64,000 bases of DNA from Escherichia coli. Its GTDB lineage: Bacteria; Pseudomonadota; Gammaproteobacteria; Enterobacterales; Enterobacteriaceae. The DNA lies in the NCBI RefSeq assembly GCF_003334305.1, contig NZ_QOWS01000012.1; one strand, written 5' to 3'. The notes below the pieces were generated by a model. That model searched no databases, was not told the DNA's origin, and saw only the letters and a program-made list of their open reading frames with translations. The first letter of the stretch is position 1. Each line of letters starts with the position of its first letter. Positions 60,118 to 60,253 of the stretch are shown here, piece by piece. A program made the position numbers and the translations under genes.

Positions 60118-60253
60118 TACTTGCTCCCTTTGCTGGGCCAATATGAGGGCAGAGAACGATCTGCCTGATGTTTTTCATTGTGATCGCCAGCGCCCTGGCT
60201 CTCAATGCTCATTTCTGCCAATGTCTTGCCTATTTCTCCAGAGTGCTGGAGAA

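Follow-up and report, generated by a model that had tools for sequence, protein, structure and literature searches.

The window analysed here is a 64-kb stretch (64,000 nucleotides) of Escherichia coli DNA, in which yqhD and the regulator gene yqhC are divergently oriented. The MG1655 equivalents of yqhC and yqhD are b3010 (3154262..3155218, minus) and b3011 (3155355.., plus). The genes of this locus, and the two yqhC start codons that are compared below, are as follows.

58022-58849, minus strand: dkgA, a gene of the window
58954-60117, minus strand: yqhD coding sequence, the divergent target gene
60118-60253: yqhD-yqhC spacer, 136 bp
60254-60256, plus strand: K-12 yqhC start ATG (318 aa), present only in Escherichia and two Klebsiella species
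60311-61210, plus strand: yqhC coding sequence from the universally conserved ATG (MKREEIC..., 299 aa), the RefSeq/PGAP model

A 281-bp query from this region (60050-60330) has a match of at least 95% identity in 5413 of the 5426 complete E. coli genomes.

Palindrome and probable operator repeats in the yqhD-yqhC spacer

At the yqhC end of the spacer there is an inverted repeat, which the preliminary description of this DNA had given as ttctccag-agtg-ctggagaa at 60234-60253. These coordinates are correct, and the repeat abuts ATG 60254. The full palindrome is larger, being a perfect 10+4+10 structure, ATTTCTCCAG-AGTG-CTGGAGAAAT, such that with its 10-nt arms the right arm takes in the A and the T of ATG 60254-60256.

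60232-60255: 24-bp palindrome, at about -62 to -85 from the inferred yqhD transcription start site (TSS, ~60170)
60232-60241: left arm, ATTTCTCCAG, the 5' part of operator unit A (see below) in the yqhD sense
60246-60255: right arm, CTGGAGAAAT, which contains CTGGAGAA (60246-60253)

When perfect palindromes with 10-nt or longer arms and loops of 0-8 nt are scanned for, and overlapping registers are counted separately, the window gives six hits, representing four distinct loci, against 0.77 +/- 1.1 in first-order Markov shuffles (100 of them). With 8-nt arms there are 30 hits, against 10.7 +/- 4.2 in the shuffles; such palindromes are common, and the 8-bp version is therefore by itself unremarkable. 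The non-randomness of the palindrome comes from its conservation. The same scan also finds two further perfect palindromes, likewise with arms of 10 bp or longer, at 35885-35911 and at 54182-54208.

The conservation has been assessed in 82 yqhC loci, anchored on the MKREEIC start codon: 80 loci, one per Enterobacteriaceae species, and two E. coli strains. The relatives all have a protein identity of at least 85%, and the sample lies within the distance of Serratia, Yersinia and Erwinia, which are at intermediate distance and outside it. The sequence CTGGAGAA of the right arm is unchanged in all 82 loci, and in 80 of them the right arm precedes the conserved yqhC ATG (60311) by exactly 65 nt. 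In the left arm it is the inner three bases that differ among genera, the outer ones being conserved. Perfect 10-bp arms are seen in 10 of the 82 loci and 8-bp arms in 24, and the TTTCTCC/GGAGAAA core is kept in 45. Within E. coli, the segment 60222-60285 differs somewhere in 891 of the 5413 genomes. One allele, T60235C, which changes ATTTCTCC into ATTCCTCC, is recurrent, as it is present in all three variant strains that were checked; this variant also occurs in other genera, and it matches the ATTCCTGC form of the upstream repeat.

The palindrome is already known as a putative YqhC-binding sequence upstream of yqhD. In two papers that cite Lee et al. 2010 (J Bacteriol 192:4205), it is referred to as a "24-bp palindrome" of two 10-bp units, being a predicted YqhC site (PMC10991953), and as a palindrome of the yqhD promoter region (PMC6115493, Frazao et al. 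2018). The published palindrome and the palindrome of the window share the locus, the size (two 10-bp units) and the proposed YqhC-binding role, and they are the same object, since 10+4+10 makes 24 bp and there is only one such repeat in the spacer. One later paper gives its position as "50 bp upstream of the yqhD ORF"; its actual distance from the yqhD ATG is 115-138 bp, and it adjoins yqhC. In the consulted literature, other than the original paper of Lee et al. 2010, the palindrome is not connected with an RNA structure, nor with the promoter or the start codon of yqhC. The suggestion of the preliminary description that the repeat may be a DNA operator of the divergent region is in agreement with this published palindrome and with the observation that both arms are conserved as sequence.

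Binding of YqhC in this region has been observed by three approaches. In electrophoretic mobility shift assays YqhC shifts a probe covering 60118-60265 (primers 19 and 20; PMC8262776), and gSELEX gives a single YqhC peak in the yqhD-yqhC spacer, both at low resolution. The YqhC ChIP-exo peak at 3153318-3153348 (U00096.2) corresponds to 60146-60176 of the window. It is at the start of the yqhD leader, off the palindrome and downstream of the repeat units that are described next. In the consulted literature, other than the original paper of Lee et al. 2010, no footprint of YqhC at the operator is found.

The segment 60198-60255 is a single continuous block that is conserved across the Enterobacteriaceae, and it contains two repeat units next to the yqhD promoter.

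60222-60242, minus strand: operator unit A, family consensus tcTGGAGAAATgGGCAAGACA in the yqhD sense
60201-60221, minus strand: operator unit B, consensus TcGGCAGaAATGtGCATTGAG, abutting the yqhD -35 element
60200-60205, minus strand: yqhD -35 element TTGAGA (PMC6115493 and promoter scan)
60177-60182, minus strand: yqhD -10 element CACAAT (PMC6115493 and promoter scan)

Units A and B are direct repeats, 21 bp apart. Of their first 16 consensus positions 13 agree, and the shared consensus is GsAGAAATGnGCA. The left arm of the palindrome is the distal end of unit A (its beginning in the yqhD sense), and the right arm is an inverted copy of this distal end. Unit B and the published 'SoxS-like' box probably overlap. 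In the original study, YqhC binding was reportedly lost through a mutation in this box and not in the palindrome.

Equivalents of A, B and the left arm are also present beside an alcohol dehydrogenase (ADH) gene in distant YqhC homologues, where the right arm, and with it the palindrome, is missing. In homologues from other phyla or metagenomes, at an identity of 49-57%, the operator can still be recognised: as CTCAATGCAC...CTTGCCCAATCCTCC for a 52%-identical homologue (from a 12-Mb genome), as AATAGGCAAAACAcgGGCAG...GCATTGA...ATCACAAT for a 57%-identical homologue and as CATTCCCGTTGATTTTTTGCCTAATCCTGCC for a 49%-identical homologue. As these homologues keep the operator without a palindrome, the left arm is, on this sequence comparison, ancient operator sequence, and the right arm is an addition specific to the Enterobacteriaceae. 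As expected of an AraC/XylS operator, units A and B form a repeat at a helical-turn distance beside the -35 element of the target gene. The left arm is conserved as DNA sequence together with the regulator and the target, the right arm within the Enterobacteriaceae only. The repeats at 60201-60242 are probably the true YqhC operator.

Start codon and proposed promoter of yqhC

The yqhC start codon has been placed at three positions. Older models start at ATG 60083 (375 aa) and overlap with yqhD, the K-12 model starts at ATG 60254, and in RefSeq the start is at 60311, also in the other E. coli genomes that were inspected, in which 60222-60285 is unannotated. The homologues of YqhC in protein databases are mostly called at 299 aa; a YqhC-specific NCBIfam model by which the N-terminus could be fixed has not been found. 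An open reading frame with an ATG at -57 relative to the conserved start is present in only nine of the 82 loci (seven of Escherichia, including the window, and two of Klebsiella), and the equivalent of ATG 60254 is missing in the other 73. In 60 loci there is an in-frame stop codon between the palindrome and ATG 60311. One Escherichia locus (L006) has ATA instead of ATG, and a stop codon at -30. A Shine-Dalgarno (SD)-like GGAG, GAGG or AGGA is found 5-16 nt upstream of ATG 60311 in 52 loci. The comparative data favour the start at 60311, because of the upstream in-frame stop in the 60 relatives, and the K-12 start codon is, as judged from these sequences, probably not the ancestral or main one.

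It had also been proposed that the right arm contains the SD sequence of yqhC. The GGAG is indeed there (60248-60251), although the assignment agrees poorly with its spacing of only 2 nt to ATG 60254, with the presence of this ATG in only nine loci and with the RefSeq start at 60311. The optimum of a functional SD-AUG spacing is well above 2 nt. Moreover, the GGAG is invariant even in genomes without the ATG that should follow it, from which it follows that it is not conserved as a Shine-Dalgarno sequence.

The conservation of the right arm can be compared with that of rightward promoter elements. Each locus has been scanned for rightward promoters with at least 7 of 12 matches to the consensus, requiring A2 and T6 of the -10 element and a spacer of 16-18 nt.

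60247-60252, plus strand: proposed yqhC -35 element TGGAGA, coinciding with the right arm
60270-60275, plus strand: proposed yqhC -10 element CACAAT (CACACT in many genera), after a 17-nt spacer

The pair TGGAGA-17-CACAAT/CACACT is found in 79 of the 82 loci at a constant offset from ATG 60311, with the runner-up pair in 25 of the 82, and it is the only rightward sigma70-like pair that is conserved family-wide. The A2 and T6 of its -10 element (A60271 and T60275) are invariant. With 8 of 12 matches it is a weak promoter, under the threshold of a separate general promoter scan. The pair mirrors the yqhD promoter, TTGAGA-17-CACAAT. It is probable, from this conservation, that TGGAGA-17-CACAAT is the yqhC promoter, with a predicted TSS at ~60282 and a leader of ~28 nt to ATG 60311. 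In the supplementary TSS data of Kim 2012, Ettwiller 2016 and Yan 2018, whose texts are possibly incomplete, neither yqhC nor its coordinates are found.

Two other promoter arrangements have been considered and rejected. A mirror-image geometry of activation of the two promoters is not compatible with the distances between the GsAGAAAT motif and the -10 element, which are 28 and 49 nt at one promoter and 14 nt at the other. A sigma54 promoter at the palindrome would require the GG-N10-GC geometry, which is not seen there. The only sigma54 site is intragenic: GTGGCATAGGTTTCGCA, at ~60566-60582, antisense inside yqhC, which is known as an intragenic sigma54 ChIP-seq site (PMC4591121), and which faces yqhD from 438 bp upstream.

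Possible transcription from upstream of the palindrome and a possible hairpin in RNA

Reporter experiments in E. coli concern a transcript that would begin further upstream. When 60040-60253 is fused at the gfp ATG, taking the place of ATG 60254, fluorescence is obtained, and this fluorescence is higher in yqhC gain-of-function strains (PMC8262776, Pereira et al. 2021). Such gain-of-function mutants have more yqhC mRNA and more yqhC-promoter reporter signal. In Reg-Seq, rightward transcripts are obtained from the fragment 60095-60254. The zero position of Reg-Seq is arbitrary (3155262, being window position 60210, 44 bp upstream of the K-12 ATG); mutations at 0 to +20 (60210-60230) lower the rightward expression, and in LB a '-10' is called at +9 to +13 (60219-60223). 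The Reg-Seq fragment ends at 60254, so the proposed -10 element at 60270 is beyond its reach. As neither this fragment nor the gfp fusion contains that element, some transcription in E. coli must begin upstream of 60254. It is possible that this occurs from 60216-60224, TGcCAATGT, which could be an extended -10 element with an implied TSS at ~60231, in which case the palindrome would be at the very 5' end of the RNA. The Reg-Seq-sensitive stretch overlaps with unit B, and the signal may therefore reflect the binding of the activator; in the re-analysis of Reg-Seq in the DARSI preprint one peak is ascribed to annotated activator sites, for which no coordinates are given.

These data bear on an explanation at the level of the RNA, limited to Escherichia, which is unlikely. 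According to this explanation a transcript starting at or before 60232 would fold into a 24-nt hairpin that buries the GGAG and the AUG at 60254, such that synthesis of the 318-aa YqhC depends on the structure, or else the hairpin would be a stabilising 5'-terminal stem-loop, with translation from 60311. The expression of the gfp fusion at ATG 60254 and its response to yqhC alleles are in agreement with this, as is the Reg-Seq -10-like element at 60219-60223, which fits the extended -10 element and the TSS at ~60231, and in Escherichia the perfect 10+10 form and the in-frame ATG occur together. The 25-mer is also predicted to be stable as RNA (-13.2 kcal/mol, z = -5.1). However, A60220, the key base of the putative extended -10 element, is only ~50% conserved, being G in the Klebsiella/Enterobacter clade; the segment 60222-60285 is intergenic in RefSeq; and the start codon itself, as described above, is missing or followed by a stop codon in most relatives, including L006 within Escherichia. 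Furthermore, an SD-AUG spacing of 2 nt is non-functional.

The pattern of substitutions also argues against a conserved RNA stem. In an alignment of 81 sequences of 60227-60260 (66 of them distinct), 83% of the alignment cells pair, and the covariation score is 0.021, against a mean of 0.020 after shuffling. A two-sided change is seen in only one stem pair and there is no compensatory change, whereas among the 66 distinct sequences one-sided breaks occur in 18 for C60238-G60249, in 29 for G60241-C60246 and in 49 for A60232-T60255. The variation is confined to the left arm or the outermost base, with CTGGAGAA remaining constant. Within E. coli itself the T60235C allele of the three strains makes a C.A mismatch that is not compensated. 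No Rfam family matches 59900-60600 with an E value of 1 or lower. As seen in the aligned sequences, this pattern of variation is the reverse of the one expected when an RNA stem is under selection. The proposal that a hairpin sequesters the SD sequence and governs the translation of yqhC is therefore poorly supported, given the absence of covariation and the breaks of the stem in numerous genera as well as in some strains of E. coli, and for E. coli itself it keeps a low probability. An intrinsic terminator has also been considered and rejected, as there is no T-run after 60255 and the terminator scan is silent there.

The comparison with known RNA elements gives a similar picture. As in SD-sequestering hairpins, such as RNA thermometers and translational operators, the E. 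coli stem would contain the GGAG and the AUG, but unlike in these hairpins there is no covariation, the AUG is not conserved and the SD spacing is 2 nt. The ompA leader has a stabilising 5'-terminal stem-loop, and the palindrome hairpin would resemble it if the E. coli TSS is at ~60231, being then at the 5' end of the mRNA; unlike the ompA-type element, its stem is not kept in other genera.

Two other potential RNA structures are present in the neighbourhood. The yqhD leader has a stem-loop, GGCAGATCGTTCTCTGCC (60147-60166, minus strand), ~5 nt into the yqhD mRNA, whose stem changes on both sides among genera (GGCAG/CTGCC, GACAG/CTGTC, GGTAG/CTACC and GGCGG/CCGCC). It is terminator-like on the plus strand in E. 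coli only, and it is located under the ChIP-exo peak at 60146-60176. When RNAalifold is applied to the yqhD leader, no consensus structure is obtained, probably due to differing loop lengths. The yqhD-dkgA spacer has a hairpin with perfect 10-bp arms, CTCACCGGAG-CCTG-CTCCGGTGAG (58870-58893, minus strand), 9 nt upstream of the AGGAGG of dkgA. It is not followed by a U-run, and it could have an intercistronic role in processing, stability or translation.

Interpretation of the divergent yqhC-yqhD region

The explanation that we consider the most plausible, and which is rather more probable than its opposite, is that the palindrome is a cis-regulatory element at the level of the DNA, belonging to the divergent and autoregulated yqhC-yqhD region, and not a translational RNA switch. 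In this mechanism YqhC, an activator of the AraC/XylS family, would bind to units A and B and activate yqhD-dkgA. The right arm would be the -35 element of an ancestral yqhC promoter, with the -10 element 17 nt downstream, the TSS at ~60282 and the start codon at 60311, and it may also be an oppositely oriented YqhC half-site. YqhC bound to the palindrome would then contact RNA polymerase at the yqhC promoter, by which the reported positive autoregulation of yqhC could arise. The palindrome would be upstream of the main yqhC transcript, and hence would never be an mRNA hairpin.

This arrangement resembles the class II activator sites of the AraC/XylS family, which are repeats of ~17-21 bp abutting the -35 element: A and B are direct repeats at a spacing of 21 bp, and the proximal one touches the yqhD -35 element. 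Examples of class II sites are I1-I2 of AraC at araBAD and the RhaS site at rhaBAD, where RhaS uses inverted half-sites. As in these systems, the regulator gene yqhC is divergent and apparently autoregulated. Different from these sites are the extra inverted partial copy, which is the right arm, and the ChIP-exo peak that is downstream of the repeats.

It is also possible, with a low probability, that the palindrome is a symmetric operator at which some dimeric regulator, not YqhC, represses or activates yqhC and/or yqhD, with TTTCTCC and GGAGAAA as half-sites. For dimeric helix-turn-helix repressors a dyad of the 10-4-10 type is more typical than for the AraC family, the invariance of the right arm exceeds what is usual for a weak -35 element, and CRP and GlaR are reported to influence yqhC. 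For such a dyad, however, the arms are unequally conserved (in 24 of the 82 loci the left-arm core has the mismatch TTTCTAC, and the 7-bp core is kept in 45), and the left arm is explained by unit A, which is present in distant homologues without the palindrome. Moreover, the sequence is unlike the CRP consensus, the reported GlaR site is inside the yqhC coding region, and the Reg-Seq architecture is (0,0), with no second factor found. A resemblance to operators of CRP, LexA or the ZntR/MerR type has also been considered and rejected; the half-sites of ZntR are in the order opposite to that of the palindrome.

A coincidental complementarity, in which the left arm is kept as YqhC operator and the right arm as promoter element, and in which the dyad has no function, is likewise improbable. 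It would account for the limited number of loci with the perfect 10-bp form (10 of 82) or the 8-bp form (24 of 82), and for each arm there is an independent explanation. Nevertheless, two independently constrained 7-mers would be reverse-complementary by chance in only ~1 in 16,000 cases, and within 45 bp there are three copies of the motif ATTTCTSC. Highly improbable is a dual use in Escherichia only, by which the operator/-35 element would have been perfected to 10+10 bp together with the in-frame ATG, and an RNA from the upstream promoter would have a 5'-terminal hairpin that gates 318-aa versus 299-aa YqhC or stabilises the mRNA; if true, the same 24 bp would be protein-binding DNA as well as structured RNA.

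When the palindrome is considered as an element of the DNA, the outcome is mainly corrective. The K-12 start codon of yqhC becomes doubtful, the presumed ribosome-binding site in the palindrome is more likely a promoter or operator element, and the operator would consist of two 21-bp direct repeats and an inverted partial copy. The general understanding of divergent loci of the AraC type is not changed by this. YqhC and YqhD are the main response of E. coli to aldehydes, such as glyoxal, furfural and glutaraldehyde, and they are the basis of engineered aldehyde biosensors, so an accurate map of the yqhC-yqhD control region is of practical value.
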